Assembly (NCBI GenBank): GCA_964473825.1 | Contig: CAYYQL010000002.1 | Coordinates: 128,001-192,000, forward strand | Source: an uncultured archaeon | GTDB taxonomy: Archaea; Asgardarchaeota; Thorarchaeia; Thorarchaeales; Thorarchaeaceae | Direction of reading: 5' to 3' | DNA length: 64,000 nt | Shown here: positions 3,718 to 64,000 of the stretch, piece by piece | How the letters are laid out: each line of letters begins with the position of its first letter | Position numbering within the stretch: the stretch's first letter is position 1 | The notes under the pieces: model-generated | Told to the model about the DNA's origin: nothing | The model's input: only the letters and a program-made list of their open reading frames with translations | Databases searched by the model: none | Position numbers and translations under genes: made by a program

Positions 3718-4383
3718 CTAATCTGATTTTTCAATCTGCTCTTCAATGGTTGCATGGATTGCGGACGCAAGGGCTTTGATCTCTCGTTCCTTGATACCCT
3801 CTGCATCTTTGCTGAGAAGCGTCTCTAGTGACTCAACCACTTCGGGCCCCGCTTCTTGTCTTTCAATAGCCTCATTTATGACGCCTCGAATCTCCTCAGT
3901 ATAGTCGGCATCCAAATCAAGATGCTTCTGGACGTACTCGCGCGCTTGTTGTTCGGCCTTTTCAGAGCGTTCCAGTCCTCCGTATTCCGTCCATAGTTGG
4001 ATTTCTTTTTCTGCAGTTTTTGGCGCATCAGATGCATGAGCAATATTGATTCCTGCAATCAGGCCGTATTTACCTCTGAGTGAGTCAGGCGACGCTTTCT
4101 CAACGAAGGTTGCGCCAAGAGCGTCACGAACTCCCTGAATCACATCCTTGCCTTCAAGAATCATGACAAGCACTGGGCCAGATGTAATGAATTGAACCAG
4201 CCATGGAAAGAACGACCGCTCTTTATGCACATCATAGTGTTTCTTTGCCAAGTTCTCAGAGACCGTCATCTCCTTGAAAGCTTGAATATTATACCCCGTC
4301 TCAAGGAGTGTCTTGACAACCAGTGCGCCAACACTTCTCCGTAGAGTTCCATCAGGTTTGACTATAACAAGTGATTCTTCCAT
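3718..4383 (-). CDS. ndk: Nucleoside diphosphate kinase with C-terminal extension
   Basis: IVKPDG, FITSGPV, SLRGKYG, NIAHASD (catalytic His). Confidence 0.92.
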   Translation of the reverse strand: MEESLVIVKPDGTLRRSVGALVVKTLLETGYNIQAFKEMTVSENLAKKHYDVHKERSFFPWLVQFITSGPVLVMILEGKDVIQGVRDALGATFVEKASPDSLRGKYGLIAGINIAHASDAPKTAEKEIQLWTEYGGLERSEKAEQQAREYVQKHLDLDADYTEEIRGVINEAIERQEAGPEVVESLETLLSKDAEGIKEREIKALASAIHATIEEQIEKSD

Positions 4384-7996: not shown

Positions 7997-9334
7997 CTAT
8001 TTCTTCTTGGCTGCGCCCATGTCTCTGGGCGTCACGTCAAGTACTACGCCCACAGCAACAGTCATACCCATGTCTCGCACTGCGAAACGTCCGAGCTGTG
8101 GAAGTTCCTTGTACTTCTCAATCACCATCGGCTTGAGTGGCACAAGTACCGCGTGCATCGACTCTCCCTTCTTGATGAAATCGGGATTCTCCTCGATGAC
8201 CTGGCCTGAGCGCTGGTCGAGTTTCTTGAGGAGCTTGTCAAATCTACATGCAATCTGTGCAGTATGCGCATGTATGACTGGGGTGTAGCCCACAGTGATT
8301 GCAGTCGGATGCTGGATGACCATTACCTGACCTGTGTAGTCTGCAGCCACAGTTGGTGGTGTATCAACAGGACCAGCAACGTCGCCACGACCGAGGTCTT
8401 TCCTCTCGACACCACGGACATTGAAGCCGATGTTGTCACCAGGAACTGCCTCATCCATTGTTTCATGGTGCATCTCGATGGTCTTGACCTCACCGGTCTT
8501 GTTTGGCGGCATGAACGTAATCTTTGAGCCTACCTTCAGGACACCGGTTTCGACACGACCAACTGGAACAGTACCGACGCCCTTGATAGAGTAGACGTCG
8601 TTGATTGGTACACGTAGGGGTTTGTCTATTGGCTTGGGAGGGAGTTCAACAGTGTCAAGTGCCTCCAGCAGGCTTGGGCCCTCGTACCATGGGGTCAGGT
8701 CAGGAGTCTTCTCCTTCAGGTTGCATGCGGATAGCGCAGAAGTTGGTATGAAGTCCATCTGATCTGTCTTGTAGCCGATGCTCTTCAGGAACCCACCGAC
8801 CTCTTCTTTGACTTCTTTGTACCTGTCCTGGCTGTATTCGACGCTATCATCGTCCATCTTATTGATGCACACAATGATGCTGGGAACACCAAGAGTCATC
8901 GCTAGGTATGCATGCTCCTTGGTCTGACCACCAGGGCCAACTCCGGCTTCAAACTCGCCTCTCTTGGCTGAAACAACCAAAAGAGCAACGTCTGCCTGAG
9001 ATGCACCTGTAATCATGTTCTTGATGAAGTCCTTGTGTCCGGGAGCGTCAATAATCGTGTAGTAGTACTTGTCAGTGAGGAACTTGAAGAACGCAATGTC
9101 TATTGTAAGTCCTCGCTCTCGCTCCTCTTTCAGCCTGTCAAGGGCAAATGCCCAAGCCCAGGAAGGACGGCCAAGCTTCTCGGCCTCAGCCTTGTGCTGC
9201 TGGAATGTTCTCTCGTCTACAGCACCGGTTTCGTAAAGCAATCTGCCCGTCATAGTGCTTTTACCGTGGTCAACGTGCCCTATGACGACCAGGTTTAGGT
9301 GCTCTTTATCTTTCTTACTCAATTGTAACACCAC
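7997..9334 (-). CDS. tuf: Elongation factor aEF-1 alpha
   Basis: GHVDHGKST, EERERGLTID, DAPGHKDFIKNMITGASQAD, LGRFAVRDMG. Confidence 0.98.
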   Translation of the reverse strand: MVLQLSKKDKEHLNLVVIGHVDHGKSTMTGRLLYETGAVDERTFQQHKAEAEKLGRPSWAWAFALDRLKEERERGLTIDIAFFKFLTDKYYYTIIDAPGHKDFIKNMITGASQADVALLVVSAKRGEFEAGVGPGGQTKEHAYLAMTLGVPSIIVCINKMDDDSVEYSQDRYKEVKEEVGGFLKSIGYKTDQMDFIPTSALSACNLKEKTPDLTPWYEGPSLLEALDTVELPPKPIDKPLRVPINDVYSIKGVGTVPVGRVETGVLKVGSKITFMPPNKTGEVKTIEMHHETMDEAVPGDNIGFNVRGVERKDLGRGDVAGPVDTPPTVAADYTGQVMVIQHPTAITVGYTPVIHAHTAQIACRFDKLLKKLDQRSGQVIEENPDFIKKGESMHAVLVPLKPMVIEKYKELPQLGRFAVRDMGMTVAVGVVLDVTPRDMGAAKKK

Positions 9335-53021: not shown

Positions 53022-53366
53022 TAGATTGTCCTCTGGTAGCAGAACATCACTTCTGGAATCTTAAAAACATCTTGATTTCCTAGTCATTTTGTCAGAAAAA
53101 AGTGTCAGATATGTGTAAGATTTCCTCCTTGCTGACACGTAGTCTTGAACACTCTCAGGGGAGGGATGGAACGCAGAAGTCTCTTACAGGTGACGTTCAC
53201 TCACCAAATTGTAAGAAACGGATTATTATCAACTCACCATTAATCCTCAAAGGGTGATTCTGCAAGATATCGTATTACTGATATTACAATAGAGTAAAAT
53301 GGCGCCGTAACCCTCAAAGATAGCCTTAAAAAACTAGTAGTTGATGAGGAGTTGAGGTGCTACTGC

Positions 53367-54569
53367 ATGCCAGGTACTACCGATGCTAAGAAAGATGGAA
53401 GCCTAGATGACTCGTCGTATACACAAAGCTATACACGACACCTTGAGCGTCGACTTAGGGCATTGGAAACAGAGAAACAGATTCTACAGGCAGAGCGCAG
53501 TAGGCTTGAGAAAGAAACACAGACACTTAGAACCGAGCTCGAAAAGCTCAGACAGTCACCACTGATAACTGCAACAATAATTGACATGTTAGAAGACGGA
53601 AGAGCGATAGTGAAGAGCTCCACAGGACCGAATTTCGTTGTTCATGTCGCTTCATCAATCTCAAGAGATAAACTACGCTCCGGTATGAGAGTTGCTCTGA
53701 ATCAGAGATCGTTTTCTGTCACTCAGGAGCTTCCACCTTCGCGCGACCCGATGATTCGTGCCATGGAGATTGAGGAAGCGCCGGATGTATCATATGTGGA
53801 CATAGGTGGTCTCAGAGAGCAAATAGATGAAATCAAAGAAACAGTTGAGTTGCCGCTCTTGAAACCCCATGTTTTTGCTGAGGTGGGTGTTGAACCTCCA
53901 AAGGGTGTTCTTCTAACGGGACCTCCGGGAACCGGGAAGACGCTGTGCGCACGTGCAGTTGCCCATGAAACCAATGCCACATTTATCCGTGTTATCGGAT
54001 CTGAGTTAGTCCAGAAATTCATAGGCGAGGGAGCACGACTCGTGAGAGAAATCTTCATGTTGGCAAAGGAAAAGGCTCCCGCGATTGTCTTTGTTGACGA
54101 GCTGGACGCAGTAGGGTCTCATCGGCTAGATATTGCAACTTCAGGGGACAGGGAGGTTCAGCGAACACTCATGCAGCTTCTCAGCGAGCTGGATGGCTTT
54201 GAAGCTAGGGGGCAGGTGGCAGTTCTAGGCGCCACCAATAGACCAGATATTCTGGATCCGGCCCTGCTTAGACCAGGCCGTTTCGATAGGATAATCCAGT
54301 TCCCAAAGCCAGATAGTCATAGTCGACTTGAGATATTCAAGATTCATACACGTGGAATGAAACTAGATTCTGAATTGGACTTCGGTTTCTTGGTGTCTGC
54401 AACTGAGGGAACCACCGGGGCCGACATCAAGGCAATCTGCACGGAAGCAGGAATGTTCACAATCCGAGATAGTAGAGTCTGTGTTGGTCAGGAAGATTTT
54501 CGGAAAGCAATAAACAAAGTACAGACACGCGGTACAGGTGATCAAGCCCCTAGCGGAATCTATTGTTGA
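53367..54569 (+). CDS. pan: Proteasome-activating nucleotidase
   Basis: Coiled coil/OB, GPPGTGKT, DELD, LRPGRFDR, HbYX tail IYC. Confidence 0.97.
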   Translation: MPGTTDAKKDGSLDDSSYTQSYTRHLERRLRALETEKQILQAERSRLEKETQTLRTELEKLRQSPLITATIIDMLEDGRAIVKSSTGPNFVVHVASSISRDKLRSGMRVALNQRSFSVTQELPPSRDPMIRAMEIEEAPDVSYVDIGGLREQIDEIKETVELPLLKPHVFAEVGVEPPKGVLLTGPPGTGKTLCARAVAHETNATFIRVIGSELVQKFIGEGARLVREIFMLAKEKAPAIVFVDELDAVGSHRLDIATSGDREVQRTLMQLLSELDGFEARGQVAVLGATNRPDILDPALLRPGRFDRIIQFPKPDSHSRLEIFKIHTRGMKLDSELDFGFLVSATEGTTGADIKAICTEAGMFTIRDSRVCVGQEDFRKAINKVQTRGTGDQAPSGIYC

Positions 54570-54597
54570 ATGGAATAGTCCAGTAATTGTGAAGTGA

Positions 54598-55425
54598 ATG
54601 AGATACCGTACTTATCTTGAGCGTGAATTGAAAGGGCAAATCCCCGAAGGTGCAAGAATACCTAGAGGCTATCACCTCATAGGACATGTCATCCTACTTG
54701 AGGTTGATCTATCACTACGGGGTTTTATACAGGAAATTGCTGAGTTGAGTCTTGCTTATGAATCACGAGCCAAGAGTATTCTCGTCCGGAATGGGCCAAC
54801 TTCTGGTGAGCATAGAATACCATCATATCGATTCATAGCGGGGGATCCAAATACAGAAACGGAACATATAGAGAATGGGGTTCGATTCAGGCTGGACCCG
54901 ACCAAGGTGACCTTCTGTGGTGGAAATCGAGCTGAACGAATACGTATGGGGTCTAGCGTTCACGAGAATGAACGGATTGTTGATATGTTCGCTTGTGTGG
55001 GACAGTTTGGAATTCATTTTGCCAAGACGGGAGGAGCAGAAGTTACGTGTATAGAGATTAATCCTGAAGCATTTCGGTATTTGGAGAAGAACATTGTGCT
55101 TAATGGAGTAGAGAACAGAGTTCGGGGCATCTTAGGAGATTGTAGAGAAAAGGTACCAAGAGAATGGGCTGATAGGATTGTCATGGGGTATCTAGACAAT
55201 ACTTGTGACTACTTGCCGTATGCTTTCAAAGCGTTGAAAGCTGGTGGCGGGGTTGTCCATATGCATATTTCGGCACCACTGCACGAGAGAGATTCTATTG
55301 GGAGGACCATAGGTTCGATAGGACTAGCAGCTGGCTTCTCAATATCTTATAATGTACGAGAAATCAAGAGCTACGCACCGGGTATCGTACATCTGGTGTA
55401 TGATGTTGACGCAATTCCATCCTAG
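54598..55425 (+). CDS. Trm5/Taw2-family SAM-dependent tRNA-modifying enzyme
   Basis: HIENG, DMFACVGQF, EINP, ADRIVMGY, IKSYAPG. Confidence 0.88.
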   Translation: MRYRTYLERELKGQIPEGARIPRGYHLIGHVILLEVDLSLRGFIQEIAELSLAYESRAKSILVRNGPTSGEHRIPSYRFIAGDPNTETEHIENGVRFRLDPTKVTFCGGNRAERIRMGSSVHENERIVDMFACVGQFGIHFAKTGGAEVTCIEINPEAFRYLEKNIVLNGVENRVRGILGDCREKVPREWADRIVMGYLDNTCDYLPYAFKALKAGGGVVHMHISAPLHERDSIGRTIGSIGLAAGFSISYNVREIKSYAPGIVHLVYDVDAIPS

Positions 55426-55506
55426 ATGCAGTATAACGTAATCGTTTTATCATCACAACTGGGAGCTAGCTACTAGAAGTAAACCGGTTATGACGAGGAA
55501 TTCAGA

Positions 55507-55890
55507 ATGGGATTCAGAGGAGTGTCACCAAAGCAGCTTGCACGAATGATGAAGAAGATGGGTATTGAACAGAAGGAGGTGCCCGGTGCCAAAGAAGTGA
55601 TTATTCGATTTGAGGACAAGGAATGGGTGATAAACAGTCCACAGGTGACTATGGTCAAACAAGGGGGTTCCGAGACCTATCAGATTGGAGGAGATCGCTC
55701 CGAACGAGGTCTTACAACAGGAAGTGCTCCTGAGAAACGTGAGGAATCGAAAGAGCAGGAGATTGAAATCCCAATGGAAGATGCAGCTCTTGTGGCTAGT
55801 CAAGCTGGCGTCGATGTGGAACGAGCAAAAGAGGCTCTGAAAGAAACAAAGGGCGATCTTGCAGCTGCAATTCTTAGACTAAAATCGTAA
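55507..55890 (+). CDS. nac: Nascent polypeptide-associated complex protein
   Basis: MMKKMGI..EVII; UBA-like LVASQAGV..GDLAAAIL. Confidence 0.93.
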   Translation: MGFRGVSPKQLARMMKKMGIEQKEVPGAKEVIIRFEDKEWVINSPQVTMVKQGGSETYQIGGDRSERGLTTGSAPEKREESKEQEIEIPMEDAALVASQAGVDVERAKEALKETKGDLAAAILRLKS

Positions 55891-56163
55891 TATTGGTATT
55901 ACAATTCAAGCATATCTTGGATTTGGTGATAATTCCGTTGATGGTTACATCAGCTCTAAGATTTAGGACTCGCCGTGCTTTTCGGCAATCTTCAGTTCGG
56001 TCTTGAAACCAGAAACATTGCATGTGCTGTTGTTGTAACATAGGGGTGTCATTCATTCGATTTGTGAATGGATTGAAGCATTAATCATAGCTGCTATGTG
56101 GCTCCGGCAACCCTGAGATGTCCATCTTCGTCCAAGTATTCTATAGTTGCTGGTGTGCCCTGA

Positions 56164-56442
56164 CTATGCGAAAGTGTATGCAAGTGCAGATACTAGAATC
56201 ATGAAGATACAGACAAGAATCCATTGTCTTAGGTACCTCTTGGTAAGTTTTGGACGCTCATTGATTTGACCAGTCACTATTAGAGTCATTGCGGAGATGA
56301 AGAGAAAAGCAAAAGGCAATGACACCGAGCTCGTGCTGAGTGGGGTATCAGTTATCACTATTATTGCAGCAAGACCACCAAAGATGAGAAAGGAGATGAT
56401 CATCAGCGAGTTTAGTACGTGTCGGACCCTATCAGTATTCAT
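56164..56442 (-). CDS. Small 3-TM membrane protein
   Basis: Three hydrophobic segments. Confidence 0.7.
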   Translation of the reverse strand: MNTDRVRHVLNSLMIISFLIFGGLAAIIVITDTPLSTSSVSLPFAFLFISAMTLIVTGQINERPKLTKRYLRQWILVCIFMILVSALAYTFA

Positions 56443-56661
56443 TTTATCTGGCTCCGTGAATTCTGGCCAGGTGTTTCAGGAATCGGACACTAGAAAAAGA
56501 TTGTGTAATCTGCTCGTTTGCTTGCAGGTCCCTTGAGAAAGGATCGGGATTTGTAGAGTGTGTTTATGAGGGAATGTAGCCGCATTGCTTATAACACAAT
56601 GTTGTATTACAAGAACTACTCTTGATACAGTATGTTAGTTTCGACTTCAGAGGTCTAGAAC

Positions 56662-57636
56662 ATGACAATTGCAATTCACGAGTCGGCTCTGATCCGGCAC
56701 TTCAATACGCGCAAAGAAACTCTTCGTATGTGGGAAGAGAAGATCGGCTGTAGGTTCTCTCCCTTCCGTGGATTCAAGATGCCAGATAGCCGGTTGTACG
56801 TTGAACATCCCGATTTCTTAGATGCAATAGTTGACTTAGTCTTGACAAATGAGAGACATATATTTCTCCGTGGAGCTGTTGGTTCGGGCAAGAGCACACT
56901 GATGCTTTTAGCCTTGCGAGACCTACCAACACTTGCTGATAGAAGAGGTAACAAGTTCGTCACTGGATATGTGGGCATGACAGGACTTTATGAGAAACAG
57001 ATGGCTGCGGCAATCGCTGATTCTTTGCGTATCAAGTATCGACGTTCTTGGGAGTCTAGTCAGATAATCGAGGCAGTAGCAGAAGAGTGTCTCAGACGAT
57101 ACGTAGAGGAAAACAGTAGAACCGCACTGTTCATTGAAGATGTTGCTGATAACCAGGAAGCAGCATTTCACAAACTGCGATTCCTCGCAGACTTGCCTAC
57201 TGAGGAGATGGTTGAGGAACATCCTGAACCATTGGATGAGCCTATTGTCACTCTGATTATGTCAGGTACAGCCGAATACTGGAATGCTATGCTGAACTTT
57301 CTCCCCCAAATAGCAGATAGGACCGAACCATTGGATGTGCCACCTTTGGAAGATGCCAAGGCAAAGGAATTCATTGGTAGAAGAATTGCTTATGCGCGGG
57401 GGAACATAGATGAATTTGACAAGAACGATTTTGACATCAGCCCATTCAGTGAGGAGGCAATCGAGATAATCAATGATGCAGCTGGCGGTAACCCGCGGGA
57501 TATACGGATGCTTGCTAGAGGCTGTCAGCAAGTTGCCGCAGAGAATTTCAAACAACGAGGCGATCCAACAGTTGGCCGGGAGATAGCCAGTCTTGTTGCT
57601 GATGCTTATGATACCATACTCAGAGAGGTGCGCTAA
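56662..57636 (+). CDS. AAA+ ATPase (ExeA/TnsC/Cdc6-like core, no winged helix)
   Basis: Walker A GAVGSGKS, deviant Walker B LFIED, IMSGT, QIADR arginine finger, GGNPRDI. Confidence 0.88.
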   Translation: MTIAIHESALIRHFNTRKETLRMWEEKIGCRFSPFRGFKMPDSRLYVEHPDFLDAIVDLVLTNERHIFLRGAVGSGKSTLMLLALRDLPTLADRRGNKFVTGYVGMTGLYEKQMAAAIADSLRIKYRRSWESSQIIEAVAEECLRRYVEENSRTALFIEDVADNQEAAFHKLRFLADLPTEEMVEEHPEPLDEPIVTLIMSGTAEYWNAMLNFLPQIADRTEPLDVPPLEDAKAKEFIGRRIAYARGNIDEFDKNDFDISPFSEEAIEIINDAAGGNPRDIRMLARGCQQVAAENFKQRGDPTVGREIASLVADAYDTILREVR

Positions 57637-57927
57637 GTGAGTCTACTAGGAAAATACAGAAAGGAATCTGAGAAGGAGGAAAGCGAAGCTGCTTCTGATA
57701 CCACTACAAGGGTTCGTAAGGAAGAAGAAACACGGGAATCGGTTCCGAACAAAGAACGGAAGAGTCCTATTGTCTCTTTTTCGATTGATGCAGATCTTAG
57801 AGAGTGCCTACAAGCTATCAGGAAGGCAAAAGCAATCAATCTGAGTATGTGGGTTGAGAAGAAGTTGAAAGCTGCAGTCTTCAGCGAGTTCCCACGAATA
57901 GCTGAGCAGTTCTTGGAATCTACCTGA
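57637..57927 (+). CDS. Putative ribbon-helix-helix DNA-binding protein with disordered N-terminus
   Basis: IVSFSID strand, helix ADLRECLQAIRKAK, INLSMWVEKKL; GAGGTG SD; starts immediately after the ATPase stop. Confidence 0.78.
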   Translation: MSLLGKYRKESEKEESEAASDTTTRVRKEEETRESVPNKERKSPIVSFSIDADLRECLQAIRKAKAINLSMWVEKKLKAAVFSEFPRIAEQFLEST

Positions 57928-58060
57928 TTATGTAGCACATTGACCTTCCCGATTGCCTTCTCGAGAGAGTTGTTAAGGCATCCGGCTAGAGTACTGCTCA
58001 ATTGGGAACCTCTGATTAGTAGATTCACTGTAACTCAGATATGTAATAACCGTAATACAG

Positions 58061-59434
58061 TTATTTCTTGGTGGCCTTGTGCATCTCGGCAAATTGGGTG
58101 ATACGATCCATACAGAGAATAGCGGTGGATGGATCATCATAACATGGGATTCTGTTCATCTCAAGCAAATCCTTACCCGGTTTTCCAACATCGCCAGCAA
58201 GCCAGACACCCACAACAGGTTTGTTGGTTCTAGATGTCCTTACACCCTCTAAGGTGCCAGCCGCGTGTTCGGTCTGTGTCATCCCTGCAAATGTAGGGAC
58301 ACCGCAGAGCACAAGAAGCATGTCGATGCTTGGATCGCGCAGCATAAGTTCGGTGGCCACTCTGTATTCTCTTCTCCCACCACTTGCCACTACATCTACA
58401 GGATTGTCAGTCGCTGCCATAGGTGGCAGGACTTCGTATAGTCTATCGCGAGTTTCTGAAGAAAGATGTGGAATCTCTAGCCTGTATCGTGAGGCTTCAT
58501 CTGTGGCCAAGACCCCTGCGCCTCCTGTATTACTAATAATACCAATATTACGACCCATCGGAAGTGGTTGGTAATCAAAGAGCTTCGCGATTTCGAATAG
58601 AGTATCTAGAGTGGGAGCTGTTACACAGCCAGCCTGACGGATTGCCGCCCCGAAGACCTTGGAAGAGCCAGCAAGAGATCCTGTGTGGGATTTCGTAGCC
58701 CGTGCGCCAGCTTTACTCGTGCCACCTTTCAGGACAACAACTGGTTTCCTTTCGGAAGCTCGCTTCAATGCTTGGTATAGCGCACGTCCTTTCTCAACTC
58801 CTTCGACATAGACAGTTATCACTGTGGTCTTTGAGTCATTGCGCAAGTAGTCAAGTAGTTCCACAAAACCGACATCAGCTGCGTTGCCTATGCTTGCAAA
58901 CTTGCTCATGCCAATTCTTTTTGCACGAGTTGTGTAGATTATCATTCCTCCGAGAGCACCACTCTGCGAAATCAGGGCTATATTACCTCGTTCAGGCATC
59001 ATCGTGAATGTGCCGTTGAAGAGACGGCTGTTTGAAACTCCGACACAATTAGGTCCAATTATTCTGACATCTGATTCCTTCGCGGCTTTGACTAGCTTGT
59101 TCTCAAGGATTGCCCCTTCTTCGCCTACTTCACTGAATCCACCAGATATTATCACTGCGTTCCTAGCTCCTGTTTCACGGATGTCCTTCATCAGTGATGG
59201 ACAGTATTTCGCAGCGATAGCTACAATGACCAGATCAACAGGTTCTGGAATCTCTTTGAGACTCTCGTAGGCCTTCACTCCCATGACCTGTTCTCGACTC
59301 CGCGTTACTGGATAACTGTCTAGTTCAGAAGCAAGGAGATTCATAAGCAGAGAATTTCCCAGTTTCCGGTAATCGGCAGAGGCCCCGACTAGAGCGACTC
59401 TTCTTGGATTGAAGAAGGGGTCAATGTCTGACAT
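58061..59434 (-). CDS. ADP-forming acyl/acetyl-CoA synthetase alpha subunit
   Basis: FFNPRRVALVGAS, IIGPNC, SQSGA, SHTGSLAG, DNPVD. Confidence 0.93.
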   Translation of the reverse strand: MSDIDPFFNPRRVALVGASADYRKLGNSLLMNLLASELDSYPVTRSREQVMGVKAYESLKEIPEPVDLVIVAIAAKYCPSLMKDIRETGARNAVIISGGFSEVGEEGAILENKLVKAAKESDVRIIGPNCVGVSNSRLFNGTFTMMPERGNIALISQSGALGGMIIYTTRAKRIGMSKFASIGNAADVGFVELLDYLRNDSKTTVITVYVEGVEKGRALYQALKRASERKPVVVLKGGTSKAGARATKSHTGSLAGSSKVFGAAIRQAGCVTAPTLDTLFEIAKLFDYQPLPMGRNIGIISNTGGAGVLATDEASRYRLEIPHLSSETRDRLYEVLPPMAATDNPVDVVASGGRREYRVATELMLRDPSIDMLLVLCGVPTFAGMTQTEHAAGTLEGVRTSRTNKPVVGVWLAGDVGKPGKDLLEMNRIPCYDDPSTAILCMDRITQFAEMHKATKK

Positions 59435-59843
59435 ATTGGGATGGCACAATTGTGTTTGATTTATGTCTGTCGTAGGTTGGCCACCTTTGAAGTTCAATTC
59501 TCAAATCCGACCGATAAGATGTGAAGATGCAAGATGTTGTAATACTATTATTATGACTAATAGAGTCGTAGGGAGGGAGAGATCGGTACTGTCTTTTTTC
59601 CTCCACGTATACACCCATGATGCGATTTCGTTCTTCCGTGAAATAACGGAGGATATTCGCCAATGTCATGACAATCCTTTTCAGCATTTAACGGTCAGTC
59701 GTATACAAAATTGTATCCGCTGAAACGAACAGAAATAGAGTAAGTTGAAGGAGCCCTCATAACTCTTTATTTATAGTTTGAAGAGTTATGGGCTCTGTTA
59801 CGAAATGCCTCTATTAGAGGTAACATGATTCATAGGTGGAAGA

Positions 59844-60395
59844 TTGAAAATGACCGGTTCTGACCAGAAACGAAGTAGTACAAAAGCTGTTGCATCAAAT
59901 GTGAAGAAGACTTTGAAGGAGCCTATACTACAAGGGCTACTTGACCGGAGTGGCTTGACCGAAGTGCAGCTAGAAACCCTATTGATTGATCTGGTCATAG
60001 AAGATCTGATTGATGGCAGTGTGCCCTATGAGAAGAAGGCATCTCTAAGGTCTCGAGAAGGCAGTAGATCACTGGGAGTGAGTCGGGGGGCATTCAATCG
60101 TACTTTGCACCAAGCGCGGCGGAATGTAACCAAGGCAGTGCATACTATGCTTCTTCTTGCCTATCTTGATTTATTCGATCTGAATATCTTTCGTCCTTTC
60201 GAAGAAGTTGCAGGGGAAATCCGGAAATATCGAAACATCAGAGATGTGTTAGCTGGCAGAGCAGAGCTCTCAGCCGAGGATTTAGAGAGTTATCGTACAG
60301 CAGAAAGAGCAATCATAAGCGCTGTTGATGACCTTACATCTCCGCTCATTTTGAAATCTGAGAATTCGAAAAAACAGGCAGGCTTCGGACGTTAA
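59844..60395 (+). CDS. Hypothetical HTH-type DNA-binding protein
   Basis: LTEVQLETL...GVSRGAFNRTLHQARRN resembles a sigma-r4/LuxR-like HTH. Confidence 0.7.
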   Translation: MKMTGSDQKRSSTKAVASNVKKTLKEPILQGLLDRSGLTEVQLETLLIDLVIEDLIDGSVPYEKKASLRSREGSRSLGVSRGAFNRTLHQARRNVTKAVHTMLLLAYLDLFDLNIFRPFEEVAGEIRKYRNIRDVLAGRAELSAEDLESYRTAERAIISAVDDLTSPLILKSENSKKQAGFGR

Positions 60396-60817
60396 GGTAT
60401 GTAATATTTGTAATACTGTCATCTTGGGTTTGAATAGAGAGCATCAGTCAAGAACTAAAAAAGAAAAATGGCACGAGTGTGCCGCGCTGAAGCAATCAGG
60501 CATGTTCCAACCGTTGCTACGGAATCATCTTGGAGGTTTGTGTTTGAGGAGATAGAGATGCCGTAACTGACGATTGAAGATCCGGGAAGGACCTAGCCGT
60601 CATTATCTCTATCAACACGACACACTCACTATTATTGTGGGATACGGGTATACATAGTTCTAATCCTAGAACGAGGATTTTCCGCTTGGATTTGTGCGAC
60701 TTTCTGTCTTTGGCATTCCAGTTTCTCCGCATAATACTTGTAATACAGTATCGTGATAGAGAAGAATCCTTATTCGCAAGATGTTAGGACTGTTTGAGCG
60801 GCACAATCGCGTCTTAG

Positions 60818-62050
60818 GTGATACAAGTGAGTGGAAAACGACGCCTAGATGAATTGCGCAAAAGGGCAGAACAACACTCTAGGAATTCGGAAAAAGCACG
60901 AGTTCAAGAATCCATCACAAATGCAATCGGTGATAGAAGAGGAAGGGATCTTGTAGACCAGATTTCGAAGATTGAGAAGCATTCAGGATGGGAGCATGTG
61001 GTGGAGGTATTGGCTTCAGCGCGGCTTGCAGAGTATTCTACTCCTATAGCACTCGGATTCCAGAAGAGGAAGCTGGAACCGTTGAAGTTCAGAGAGGTGT
61101 TGTTCGGACTCTTTTCATGTTCAGGTTTTGAACCGATAGATGTTCCCACCGAAGAGATTCTTAATCAGCTTTATGAAGTTGATAGTTTCGTTAAGGCGAA
61201 CACTCTATTCCGGGCTCTTATTGAAAATCATGCTTCGAATCAGATTAAATCAGGAGACCTGTTATTCTTCTCAGGGGACTCGTGGAATTCTGACATAACT
61301 GAGAGAGTCAACTCGCTACAAGAGAGTCAAATGGAGAATTTTGTTCTACCCAGTGTGAATGAGAATGTTCAACTACAGAAACTATGGAGGACAGAGTTAG
61401 GACGCCGCCTGCTTGCTAATCTAGGTGTGAAAGGGACTATCCTCAATCTCGATAGTGATGTAATACAGATATTAACTGTATCATTTCCTGGTTTGACAAC
61501 GACAACAGAGAAACAAGTGAAGGCCAACTCACAGATACCTAACGTTCCTTCCCTTCCGGTTTATGACCGTCTGCTTACGGCTATTATTGAGCATGAGATA
61601 GAAGATCTCCGGAACCTAGGTAGTCAATGGGCATATCCAGTTCTTGACTACTACGTGAGTGAGTCACTGAGAGATTATTTGGAAAGTGATAGTCCAGAGG
61701 AGTATCGGCGATATCTGAGTGGTCTCAATGCACATATTGCGGTCCGTGCTGTTGAATCGATATCTACGTTCCAGAAACTCATAGAAAGAATTGACGTCCC
61801 TAGAGTTTCAGAGCCAGCAGCACTTGCCCTGGGAAACTTCTTCACTGAACCAGCCATCGCTGTTCTCTTGGAAAAAGTCTGTTCTACGTTAGATGAAACA
61901 AGCGAAGCTGCTCTGAGAGCATTGCAACGGATTCATGACTTTACACCCGAAGCTGAGCCAATGATAAGACTGGCAGCTGAGACCAACTGCAGGTCAGCTG
62001 CAAGACTGAATGCAATACTGGAAACACGTATTTGGAGCTCATCGCGTTGA
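60818..62050 (+). CDS. Hypothetical helical protein with C-terminal HEAT-like repeats
   Basis: 410-aa ORF; PAALALGN, EAALRALQRI. Confidence 0.75.
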   Translation: MIQVSGKRRLDELRKRAEQHSRNSEKARVQESITNAIGDRRGRDLVDQISKIEKHSGWEHVVEVLASARLAEYSTPIALGFQKRKLEPLKFREVLFGLFSCSGFEPIDVPTEEILNQLYEVDSFVKANTLFRALIENHASNQIKSGDLLFFSGDSWNSDITERVNSLQESQMENFVLPSVNENVQLQKLWRTELGRRLLANLGVKGTILNLDSDVIQILTVSFPGLTTTTEKQVKANSQIPNVPSLPVYDRLLTAIIEHEIEDLRNLGSQWAYPVLDYYVSESLRDYLESDSPEEYRRYLSGLNAHIAVRAVESISTFQKLIERIDVPRVSEPAALALGNFFTEPAIAVLLEKVCSTLDETSEAALRALQRIHDFTPEAEPMIRLAAETNCRSAARLNAILETRIWSSSR

Positions 62051-62096
62051 TTGCGGCCAATCGTATTACAAGTATTCCTTATAATACGTGACGTTC

Positions 62097-62501
62097 TTAT
62101 CGTGGAAGTGTCCATTCTGAATGCTCTTCAACTGGAACAAACCCCAGGATTAAGTTGCCTCGAACTTCATCGAACTTGAACACTCCGAAAATATGGCGGT
62201 CGCTACTGTTCCCCCAATCGATTCTTTGTCGAGCGATCAGGTTCTCAAAGAGAGACCTGCATTGTCGCCTTACCGTCAAGAAAAGATTCCGATACCGTCT
62301 GCGTTGAGATGGTCGGATATCCCACCGCTCTAGAATAAAACGATTGGCAAGGCTATTGCTCGAGATCAGGATTGATCTCTTTTTCATGTTTGACAACTGT
62401 ACACTCTCTTCCAGTGCCTTTCTCAAAATATCAGGAGCGGTTGCCAGAATAGACGGCGTTGCGATTGGTTCTTTGAATGCTATGCTGTTCTTCTTGGACA
62501 A
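62097..62501 (-). CDS. Hypothetical basic protein
   Basis: 134-aa ORF, GAGG SD, Arg-rich. Confidence 0.7.
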   Translation of the reverse strand: MSKKNSIAFKEPIATPSILATAPDILRKALEESVQLSNMKKRSILISSNSLANRFILERWDIRPSQRRRYRNLFLTVRRQCRSLFENLIARQRIDWGNSSDRHIFGVFKFDEVRGNLILGFVPVEEHSEWTLPR

Positions 62502-62660
62502 ATGCCTCGACCATCCTCACACTAATACTGTGTGTCTTGGCTTAAGAAGACCACAATCAAGATGAACGCATCAGCCGCCTAACAACTGCACACTCTCTTC
62601 CAGTTCCTTCTTCGGTGAACTAATATCATTACACGGACCTAGCTTTCAGGGTGTAGTGTG

Positions 62661-64000
62661 TTGAAACAAAGAGCCAGAATTCACGTTACAGGTATAGTAC
62701 AGGGAGTTGGATTCAGGCCCTTCATCTTTCGTCAGGCAAAAGAACGGTCTCTACAAGGTTATGTCCTCAATCTCGGAGATGCTGGCGTTAGAATAGTGAC
62801 AGAGGGCGATGAAGAGAAAATCCAAGATTTCATTCAAGAGATACAGAGTAATCCACCATCGATATCACGCATAGAAACTCTGGATACTGAATGGATGGAA
62901 CCAACCGGAGAATTCAACGACTTCGTTATCAAGAAATCATCGACCGGAAGAAGCAAGGATGCTGCACCTGAGATTCCACCAGACATAGCAATATGTCGGG
63001 ACTGTGTTGAAGACCTATTTGATCCAAATTCTCGGTGGCACCTCTACCCCTTTACATCGTGTGCTGCCTGTGGACCTCGGTTTTCCACTATCACCGACCT
63101 TCCTTACGATAGACCCAATACAACCATGGATGATTTTCCACTATGTGATACTTGTAATACGGGTTATACAAATCCACTCGATAGAAGGTACCATGCTCAA
63201 ACCACAGCGTGTGAGAGGTGTGGTCCTTCCTACAGACTTGTTGATAAGCAAGGAAATCTAGTCGAAGATGAAGATCCTGTTCCTGTTGCTGTATCTATGC
63301 TTGACCAAGGAAGGATTGTAGCGCTACAAGGAATATCTGGTACGCATCTTGCCACAATAGTGTCAGATCCTAATCCAATACGCAAGTTGCGTCGAAGGAA
63401 GCGAAAGTCGCATCGCCCCTTTGCTGTGATGTTTCGGGATATCGAAACCGTCAAGACACAGTTTGACCTCAGTGATATGGAACAGGACTTGCTCTTATCA
63501 TGGAGAAGGCCTATTGTTCTCTTGACTATTGGAGACGATGTATCACGTGTAATACCTCAGTCTTCAATTGACCAGATTGCACCTGGCCTGGATAGCATAG
63601 GAGTGATGCTGCCCTATGCGCCGATGCATCATATGCTATTCGAGTATACAGATGAACCCGCATTGATTATGACGAGTGCAAATCCGTCCGGTGTCCCCAT
63701 GTACATCGAACCAGACAGGATTATTTCGGACCTGAGAGATATTACTGATTTCTCTCTTGTTCATGATAGACGAATTCATCAACGGGCAGACGATTCTGTC
63801 ATTAAACCATTGACCAAGTCGAAGGCGGTATTCATTCGTCGTTCACGTGGTTACGTTCCAGAACCGATAGGGGTTCGTGGTCCTTGGGGCGACTTGACCG
63901 GTATTGCTGTTGGACCTGAAGAGAAAGTCACGGGATCTGTGCTCAAGGCTAGCAACGCCTACCTTACACAGTACATTGGTGATGTCGACAAAGTAGAAAC
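62661..64000 (+). CDS. hypF: [NiFe]-hydrogenase maturation carbamoyltransferase HypF (partial, runs off window)
   Basis: Manual translation MKQRARIHVTGIVQGVGFRPF; IPPDIAICRDC, CAACGPRF, LPYDR, DRRYHAQ. Confidence 0.95.
   Translation, partial: MKQRARIHVTGIVQGVGFRPFIFRQAKERSLQGYVLNLGDAGVRIVTEGDEEKIQDFIQEIQSNPPSISRIETLDTEWMEPTGEFNDFVIKKSSTGRSKDAAPEIPPDIAICRDCVEDLFDPNSRWHLYPFTSCAACGPRFSTITDLPYDRPNTTMDDFPLCDTCNTGYTNPLDRRYHAQTTACERCGPSYRLVDKQGNLVEDEDPVPVAVSMLDQGRIVALQGISGTHLATIVSDPNPIRKLRRRKRKSHRPFAVMFRDIETVKTQFDLSDMEQDLLLSWRRPIVLLTIGDDVSRVIPQSSIDQIAPGLDSIGVMLPYAPMHHMLFEYTDEPALIMTSANPSGVPMYIEPDRIISDLRDITDFSLVHDRRIHQRADDSVIKPLTKSKAVFIRRSRGYVPEPIGVRGPWGDLTGIAVGPEEKVTGSVLKASNAYLTQYIGDVDKVE

Follow-up and report, generated by a model that had tools for sequence, protein, structure and literature searches.

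The 64-kb window analysed here, the whole stretch of DNA at positions 128001-192000 of contig C2 in a 3.27-Mb, 96%-complete Thorarchaeota metagenome-assembled genome, carries a two-gene operon that joins an AAA+ ATPase to a small protein, probably of the ribbon-helix-helix (RHH) type, with a conserved N-terminal peptide on a disordered linker. The operon is linked to a replication origin and lies in the genome's only field of short, phased palindromic boxes. The sequencing runs found for this genome are all of DNA, from microbial-mat and sediment metagenomes. With about even confidence, we propose that the operon encodes the trans-acting proteins of a nucleoprotein system, centromere-like or origin-organising, that acts close to the origin and is particular to several Asgard lineages. 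We favour this reading because the layout resembles that of type Ib and SegAB partition loci and the ATPase has AAA+ kin that load onto DNA or polymerise along it. The three candidate parts of a partition system (NTPase, RHH protein, and cis boxes) are all present and co-conserved. The operon comprises the following features (coordinates are positions in the window, unless a contig or locus prefix is given).

56588-56630, plus strand: operon promoter region, a TATA-like TTATAAC followed by a heptad array
56662-57636, plus strand: AAA+ ATPase of an ExeA/AAA_22-like family with a Cdc6/Orc1/TnsC/MuB-like fold (324 aa), assigned from motifs, model, and fold searches
57625-57630, plus strand: Shine-Dalgarno-like hexamer GAGGTG within the 3' end of the ATPase coding sequence, with 6 nt between it and the small-gene GTG
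57637-57927, plus strand: tailed RHH-like protein (96 aa) with conserved N-peptide MSLLGKYRK, charged disordered linker, and C-terminal strand (IVSFSI) plus helix-helix

The operon occupies C2:184662-185927. As the first-pass annotation had stated, the two genes adjoin without a gap: the TAA stop of the ATPase gene (57634-57636) abuts the GTG start of the small gene (57637), and the GAGGTG hexamer ahead of this start points to translational coupling. In the promoter, a GTATTAC at 56604 is followed by degenerate copies at +9 and +18, and the array ends 32 nt before the ATG. Neighbours within ca. 8 kb are housekeeping genes only (TFE-alpha, an MBF1-like helix-turn-helix [HTH] protein, PAN, Trm5/Tyw2, NAC, an ADP-forming acyl-CoA synthetase, and HypF). 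Neither transposase nor secretion genes were found over this distance, in line with what the same annotation had noted, and PADLOC assigned none of five locus proteins to a defence family. Mobile-element, secretion, and defence roles were rejected on this gene context.

The ATPase has a Walker A motif (GAVGSGKST), a variant Walker B (FIED, with ED where relatives have DE), a candidate arginine finger (R220), and a sensor 2 arginine (R279, in GNPR). In an alignment of 28 sequences reaching down to 20% identity, G74, G76, K77, R220, P261, F262, and R279 were invariant and T203 nearly so; across the Thorarchaeaceae the protein is ca. 80% identical. The AF2 model (pLDDT 91.1, pTM 0.86) consists of a five-strand AAA+ core and a lid, and the chain stops after the lid domain at residue 324, without a winged helix. 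Strands 2 and 3 are separated by two helices with the basic loop RIKYRRSW between them, which would fit an insertion of the initiator type. Foldseek ranked archaeal Orc1/Cdc6 at the top (E 1e-10), and an all-against-all structure alignment gave Z scores of 19.4 for Drosophila Cdc6, 18.7 for archaeal Orc1 and, over 231-244 residues, 17.4 for the ShCAST TnsC filament and 17.2 for the MuB filament. Core, lid, motifs, and Z scores of 12-19 to many AAA+ structures place the protein in the AAA+ superfamily, with the ED Walker B as a variant. Motifs, alignment, and model thus bear out the earlier description of a non-ParA AAA+ protein with an arginine finger, a GNPR sensor 2, an ED Walker B, and no winged helix.

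Known sequence families approach this ATPase from a distance. Pfam returned AAA_22 alone, below threshold (23.6 bits, cut-off 27), NCBIfam gave TIGR03015 at 30.9 bits (cut-off 324.5), the Orc1/Cdc6 model TIGR02928 scored 12.5 bits (cut-off 181.3), and the Pfam scan found no Cdc6_C match. Sequence searches of the PDB with profiles of the ATPase and of the small protein retrieved P-loop-level or chance matches only. The family is narrow: in an exhaustive HMMER scan, only 27 of 1.84 billion cluster representatives reached E ≤ 1e-3. A genuine ExeA-like protein shares with the ATPase the N-terminal G-x3-[NS]PF...PD motif and the G-x-PR sensor motif, and these shared motifs assign it to the ExeA/AAA_22 branch by sequence, while by fold it belongs to the initiator/TnsC/MuB neighbourhood. 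Distant bacterial-type relatives carry PG_binding_1. Distant paralogues in other Asgard families have a fused C-terminal winged HTH and no small downstream partner, which suggests that DNA work is native to this ATPase clade. Two paralogues of 351-356 aa, at L058:6811-7866 (family f16) and L060:6330-7400 (family f6), combine the shared N-terminal motif with a fused C-terminal winged HTH and have neither an RHH partner nor an origin recognition box (ORB) nearby; they look like the fused counterpart of the split ATPase/RHH layout.

Four established identities were considered for the ATPase and rejected. Against an Orc1/Cdc6 initiator stand the missing winged helix, the TIGR02928 score, and the lack of Cdc6_C. 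A ParA/SegA protein would have the deviant Walker A KGGxGK[ST], which is not found here; the fold is AAA+, and there were no ParA, CbiA, or AAA_31 matches. An ExeA/GspA secretion ATPase is at odds with the sub-threshold AAA_22 and TIGR03015 scores, the absence of a C-terminal extension, and the absence of secretion genes nearby. The fold likeness to TniB/TnsC/MuB transposition ATPases is real (Z 17), but there is no transposase within ca. 8 kb, and the single-copy gene keeps its synteny across Asgard classes.

In the small protein, residues S2, L4, G5, K6, Y7, and R8 of the N-terminal peptide were invariant in 21 Thorarchaeota homologues, the linker was variable, gapped, and charged, and the block 37-89 was conserved. 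A chance open reading frame was rejected given these conserved termini and 384 homologues at E ≤ 1e-3. The AF2 model (pLDDT 64) has a helix at 3-18, a stretch with pLDDT < 50 at 19-32, and helices at 52-63, 69-84, and 86-92. It leaves the IVSFSI segment as coil, which is expected where a dimeric ribbon is modelled as a monomer. We take the small protein as a probable RHH. Pfam had no match for the window protein itself; its f27 orthologues, at the equivalent position (E 7e-10 to 9e-7 against the window protein), match RHH_1 over the homologous block, and one exceeds the gathering cut-off (best E 2.2e-4, 21.5 bits, cut-off 20.5, residues 61-94). The f19 equivalents match Arc weakly (E 0.03-0.05), and the ESM Atlas feature neighbours (0.89-0.90) are mostly Arc, HicB, RHH_1, RHH_3, RHH_5, and CopG clusters. 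Foldseek with the model gave nothing significant (Reg576 and SegB at E 7.5-8), and no sequence match to the ParG, omega, or SegB families was found. The ParG/SegB-type layout proposed earlier therefore stands as far as N-peptide, linker, and C-terminal helices go, on the alignment and the AF2 model; its RHH is probable, and the likeness does not extend to a ParG or SegB sequence match. A complex prediction for the ATPase and the small protein scored 0.00, was run without controls, gives no verdict, and is used neither way.

We surveyed 301 Asgard genomes from 30 sampled families. Full-length ATPase orthologues occur in seven of the families, including Thor-, Odin-, and Jordarchaeia: 69 of 76 genomes in f1, 1/1 in f2, 8/11 in f27 (labelled Heimdallarchaeota), 5/6 in f19, 5/5 in f7 (Jordarchaeales), 4/4 in f3 (Odinarchaeum yellowstonii), and 3/3 in f21. 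None of the 28 genomes of f5 had one, and the 21 genomes of f22 yielded one weak, partial match. The genome of the window has one copy of the gene, and the module is inherited vertically as a single copy. In all seven families, and in three metagenomic relatives, the ATPase gene is followed on the same strand by a gene for 93-160 aa, whose product joins a conserved motif at the N-terminus through a low-complexity linker to a strand-helix-helix at the C-terminus. None of the orthologues was placed in a transposon or secretion locus, a placement that the first-pass annotation had named as one that would speak against its reading; nor does the small protein, which looks like an RHH, speak against it. 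Across families the conserved neighbours of the operon are a 183-aa HTH-like protein, HypF, a 96-aa origin-adjacent protein (distinct from the small RHH-like protein), and a 210-aa winged-HTH protein. The first of these lies in the window as follows.

59844-60395, plus strand: uncharacterised HTH-like protein of 183 aa, a conserved operon neighbour in six other Asgard families

The recognition-like stretch of the 183-aa protein is conserved in all families, and the protein also contains a weak sigma-70 region-4-like stretch (GVSRGAFNRTLHQARRN). In Jordarchaeia its gene directly follows the RHH gene on the same strand, and its Atlas neighbours include Bathyarchaeota clusters. The hypF gene (62658 to the window end) adjoins the operon region in five Asgard families, which may simply be old synteny of the oriC region.

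The boxes, with the core GTAWTAC, were strongly over-represented in the window, with 19 copies against 3.2 expected and none of 100 shuffles reaching as many. The whole 3.27-Mb genome has 149 copies, and every 10-kb segment with at least five sites lies at the operon locus; the densest (C2:183001-193000, 13 copies against ca. 0.5 expected) is centred on the operon. When the sites are aligned, degenerate heptads repeat at -9 and +9, so that the units consist of two or three boxes in 9-bp phase, and all five paired-box matches of the genome lie within C2:181272-188731. The main elements of the field in the window are these.

53272-63555, no strand assigned: in-window part of the GTAWTAC field, with 12 exact cores, most accompanied by degenerate copies at 9-bp phase
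58043-58058, no strand assigned: heptad pair GTAATAA-cc-GTAATAC, 116 nt past the stop of the small gene
58527-58551, no strand assigned: triple phased box in the acyl-CoA synthetase gene (58061-59497, minus strand), at the codons for NIGIISNT

Beyond the window, the field extends to window-equivalent position 68235 and encloses the origin described below. The codon choices underlying the triple box (AAT ATT GGT ATT ATT AGT AAT ACA) are kept in eight other Thorarchaeaceae genomes, seven of them with 68-74% protein identity, and the box is lost where its Ser is replaced by Thr. This intragenic box with conserved synonymous positions argues against a role of the boxes as promoter operators only. 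Genome-wide, GTAWTAC was rarer than its reversed control in three Thorarchaeaceae genomes (97 vs 308, 245 vs 537, and 331 vs 544) and in one f2 genome (360 vs 504), a 1.4- to 3-fold rarity that suggests avoidance of the box outside the field. We rejected an AT-rich intergenic artefact as the source of the boxes: half of them are intragenic, the reversed-pattern controls gave 0, and the motif is under-represented genome-wide. Two further genes lie inside the box field, for a 410-aa HEAT-repeat-like protein (60818-62050, plus strand) and a 134-aa basic protein (62097-62501, minus strand); no homologues of either were found in the compared loci of other Asgard families.

The field is conserved, and is the sole such cluster in each genome that carries it. 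In nine other Thorarchaeaceae genomes the same cluster begins at the operon and reaches ca. 10 kb downstream. One site is always found at the ATPase promoter (ca. 500 bp upstream of mid-ATPase, in all nine), and another recurs just past the small gene, ca. +830 to +990 from mid-ATPase. The arrays are spaced ca. 0.7-1.3 kb apart, more regularly than random in 7 of 10 Thorarchaeaceae genomes. In this family 90 of 177 sites are intragenic, at a coding density of ca. 0.83; the other 49% fall in ca. 17% of the sequence, an intergenic enrichment. Among four f27 genomes, all paired heptads genome-wide lie within ca. 2 kb downstream of the operon (reversed control, 0). In f19 the enriched word is GATATC, with 29-31 copies in 14 kb and arrays at 13-bp phase, and the complete 3.58-Mb f19 genome has all six of its GATATC-N7-GATATC matches within 11.5 kb around the operon (control, 0). 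In Jordarchaeia a few GATATC boxes mark the ATPase promoter, the gap between the ATPase and RHH genes, and the edge of the ORBs, and GTTAAC is only partly locus-specific there (2/4 and 2/5 paired sites). One Jordarchaeales ATPase promoter (L026:7403-7495) shows both box types together, GATATC boxes and an inverted GTAATAC/GTATTAC pair. The box type tracks the RHH strand, NFNVR[ML]P occurring with GATATC (f19 and f7) and P[IV][VI]S[FA][ST][IV] with GTAWTAC (f1 and f27). MetJ and Arc are beta-ribbon readers of short tandem palindromes, and palindromes of 6-7 bp in fixed-phase tandems would favour a reader of this kind.

The operon is physically linked to oriC. About 10 kb downstream, at L053:3640-3900 (C2:195640-195900, window-equivalent 67640-67900), two inverted ORB elements with G-strings (CTCTAGTGGAAACGAAGGGG and a near-copy) flank a 127-bp AT-rich spacer at window-equivalent ca. 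67671-67841. The pair follows the pattern TCCAGTGGAAAC-N3-GGGGT, a third ORB lies 4 kb beyond it (L053:7915), and the layout of inverted ORBs matches the reviewed arrangement of archaeal origins (PMC4010727). ORB pairs occur at matching places in other Thorarchaeaceae. Their distance from the ATPase gene is 2 kb in f19, 0.9-1 kb in Jordarchaeia, and ca. 5 kb in Odinarchaeum, and the pair always stands beside the gene for the 96-aa origin-adjacent protein (Thor-, Odin-, Jordarchaeia, and f19). The best-scoring Orc1/Cdc6 gene lies within the operon/origin locus, ca. 5 kb or less from the operon, in f19, Jordarchaeia, and Odinarchaeum; in Thorarchaeaceae it is far off or on another contig, and a second paralogue is 34-35 kb away. 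From this conserved synteny, the ancestral order appears to have been cdc6-1 / winged HTH / oriC / 96-aa gene / AAA+-RHH / HTH-like gene / hypF.

Other elements accompany the origin. In Thorarchaeota, copies of a second palindrome, AGAACAnnTGTTCY, lie on either side of the origin and of the 96-aa origin-adjacent gene (L053:3644-3661, 3878-3895, and 4207-4221), and the palindrome recurs at equivalent places in Jordarchaeia (L026 ca. 8450-8475 and 7745; L027 5690 and 6400); this recurrence points to a deeply conserved site for another origin-linked factor. The 96-aa origin-adjacent protein (L053:3898-4188, minus strand), which had been labelled Cas2-like before, and the 210-aa protein (L053:6999-7631, minus strand) gave no Pfam matches. 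The latter has a C-terminal winged-HTH-like stretch, and its gene lies within a few kb of the ORB pair.

In the mechanism that we propose, RHH dimers would bind cooperatively to the phased palindromic boxes, GTAWTAC at 9 bp in Thorarchaeaceae and f27 and GATATC at 13 bp in f19 and Jordarchaeia. These boxes would be occupied at the operon promoter and at intervals of ca. 1 kb across the 10-15 kb up to oriC, and each bound dimer would display two conserved N-peptides on flexible charged linkers. The ATPase, judging by its fold match to Cdc6/Orc1, TnsC, and MuB, may assemble on DNA in its ATP state, and the RHH tails could recruit it, switch it off, or both. The outcome could be a ParA-like, ATP-driven positioning ratchet, or else an ATP-controlled compaction or bridging complex that would mark and separate sister origin regions. 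The promoter boxes would add autoregulation. Predicted parts of this scheme are the identity of the box binder, the contact between tail and ATPase, the binding of the ATPase to DNA, and the role in the cell.

Several known systems share parts of this design. The SegAB system of Sulfolobales is an ATPase-first chromosomal operon of the ParA-type ATPase SegA and SegB, and one study reports SegB homologues in Thermoproteota and Euryarchaeota only (PMC12139799, 10.1101/2025.02.07.637068). Like the Thorarchaeota locus, segAB is a two-gene archaeal chromosomal operon in which SegB combines an ATPase-interacting N-terminal region with a C-terminal RHH-containing DNA-binding domain and binds heptad-type repeats beside its own operon, not far from an origin. 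It differs in that SegA is a deviant-Walker ParA, whereas the ATPase here is an AAA+ of the ExeA/Orc clade, and in that the full segS triple repeat occurs only once in the chromosome studied, with partial repeats scattered across it, whereas here 14-28 phased arrays extend over 10-15 kb as far as oriC.

Type Ib plasmid partition (ParF-ParG of TP228, delta-omega of pSM19035) relies on a small RHH centromere binder whose flexible N-tail stimulates the ATPase, with short boxes in tandem that double as centromere and operator, and with the ATPase gene first and tightly coupled. The tailed RHH layout, the tandem boxes at the operon promoter, and the ATPase-first order are alike, with RHH binding and tail action predicted in our case; the type Ib motor is a plasmid-borne ParA/Walker-type protein, however, and no ParG or omega sequence match was found here. 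TnsC and MuB, close in fold (Z 17.4 and 17.2), form ATP-dependent DNA-bound filaments that a short peptide from a partner protein takes apart, a logic that we propose for the RHH tails as well, but the present locus has no transposase or TniQ nearby and is single copy, chromosomal, vertically inherited, and origin-linked. Archaeal Orc1/Cdc6 proteins share the fold (Z 18.7; Foldseek E 1e-10), a gene near an ORB-type origin, and the conserved Walker A, arginine finger, and sensor 2. The ATPase departs from them in lacking the C-terminal winged helix, in its TIGR02928 score (12.5 against 181.3 bits), in its ED Walker B, and in its ExeA-type G-x3-SPF...PD motif, and bona fide Orc1/Cdc6 paralogues are encoded elsewhere in the genome. 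The nearest sequence families, ExeA/GspA and the XrtA-associated ATPases (COG3267, TIGR03015, AAA_22), share the N-terminal and G-x-PR motifs; the ATPase is far sub-threshold for them (30.9 against 324.5; 23.6 against 27), has no membrane or peptidoglycan-binding part, and lies in no secretion context.

Several results weigh against a centromere-like or origin-organising system. In-silico testing gave no ATPase-RHH contact, the ED Walker B may hydrolyse ATP poorly, and the genome encodes four ParA/MinD-like ATPases that could serve segregation. Comparison by hhalign detected no homology among the three groups of small partners, which resemble one another in architecture and position only. Simple k-mer and palindromic-dyad counts turned up no box field in f2, Odinarchaeum, or f21, and the covariation of box and RHH strand spans just two independent groups. 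In addition, exact GTAWTAC flanks the ATPase gene also in f2, f21, and Jordarchaeia, where the small proteins differ, so that a more conserved factor could bind the boxes; the 183-aa HTH-like protein is an alternative candidate for the box binder.

The main rival is a replication-control module, in which RHH-box arrays and ATPase would regulate firing or licensing of oriC1 (access of Orc1/Cdc6-1 and MCM, or sequestration of the new origin) without moving DNA. We consider it unlikely but worth serious attention: the operon is anciently and tightly linked to the ORB origin and cdc6-1, the top structural matches of the ATPase are Cdc6 and Orc1, and the box field encloses and ends at the origin. 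Yet the boxes are spread over 10-15 kb at ca. 1-kb spacing, half of them within genes, rather than clustered around the unwinding element; the ATPase has no winged helix, the part with which Orc1/Cdc6 contacts ORBs and MCM; and in Thorarchaeaceae cdc6-1 moved off while the linkage of operon and origin stayed. Soj/Spo0J in Bacillus do both segregation and replication control, and such a role may overlap or coexist with the favoured one. Far less probable is that the pair forms a split initiator, an Orc1/Cdc6-derived ATPase that has lost its winged helix, with the RHH protein standing in for it in trans and the pair firing its own box-defined origin, an alternative already raised in the first-pass annotation. 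Archaeal initiator genes usually adjoin their origin (PMC4010727), the Cdc6/Orc1-like fold indeed has no winged helix, and the paralogues carry a fused winged HTH. The idea is weakened by the canonical ORBs of the neighbouring origin, by the cdc6-1 gene that this origin already has beside it in three lineages (Odinarchaeia, Jordarchaeia, and f19), and by boxes that are dispersed over 10-15 kb and frame no AT-rich unwinding element; the Orc1/Cdc6 model also gives the ATPase 12.5 bits where its cut-off is 181, and by sequence the ATPase falls in the ExeA/AAA_22 branch.

A local transcription circuit would make the RHH protein an autorepressor or neighbour regulator, the ATPase a co-regulator or passenger, and the field a dense local regulon. 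RHH proteins are mostly repressors, the boxes overlap the operon promoter in every lineage examined, and the intergenic enrichment (49% of sites in ca. 17% of the sequence) fits as well. We nevertheless judge this quite improbable, as half of the sites fall within genes or at 3' ends, the intragenic triple box is conserved at synonymous positions, and the sole such cluster per genome tracks the origin and not a gene set. The intervening genes vary by family (those for the acyl-CoA synthetase, the HEAT-repeat protein, and the 134-aa protein are matched within the order only, in f2, or nowhere), and the strict coupling to a highly conserved ATPase would be left unexplained. A conventional ExeA/TniB role, in secretion or pilus assembly or in selecting transposition targets, is scarcely credible. 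Homologues are named 'ExeA' by JGI and PGAP, the AAA_22 and TIGR03015 matches are weak, and TnsC and MuB are close in fold, but a secretion or transposition role is contradicted by context: transmembrane and peptidoglycan-binding parts are absent from the protein, as are secretion and transposase genes from its surroundings, and the gene, a single copy passed on vertically, keeps its synteny with oriC across classes and has no defence-family match.

The architecture described in the first-pass annotation, a non-ParA AAA+ ATPase coupled to a tailed RHH-like protein, thus stands, and the partition-type function suggested there becomes more plausible in view of the phased-box field, the adjacent ORB origin, and a layout conserved across Asgard classes; the segregation role itself is a prediction. 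A full-text search of the literature library found no description of the ATPase-RHH module. The known partition NTPases fall into three classes, ParA, actin-like, and tubulin-like. More doubtful than the centromere-like or origin-organising reading itself, and put forward here tentatively, is a bolder form of it: at least seven Asgard families would segregate or organise their primary origin region by means of a fourth class of partition NTPase, an AAA+ protein of the ExeA/Orc/TnsC clade driven by RHH tails on a 10-15 kb box field. In the closest prokaryotic relatives of eukaryotes, an initiator-type ATPase would then be at the heart of a functional analogue of ParABS.

For the study of how Asgard chromosomes are organised and segregated, this locus offers a precise, testable cis element that is unique in each genome, two small expressible proteins, and, in several Asgard classes, an oriC defined computationally. 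If the ATPase acts on box-bound RHH tails, an AAA+ motor would join the three partition NTPase classes, and partition logic would then be linked to the ORC/Cdc6 and TnsC/MuB branch of the AAA+ proteins. Should the module turn out to control replication, it would nonetheless count as a new origin-associated factor, and one from the lineage that stands nearest to eukaryotes.

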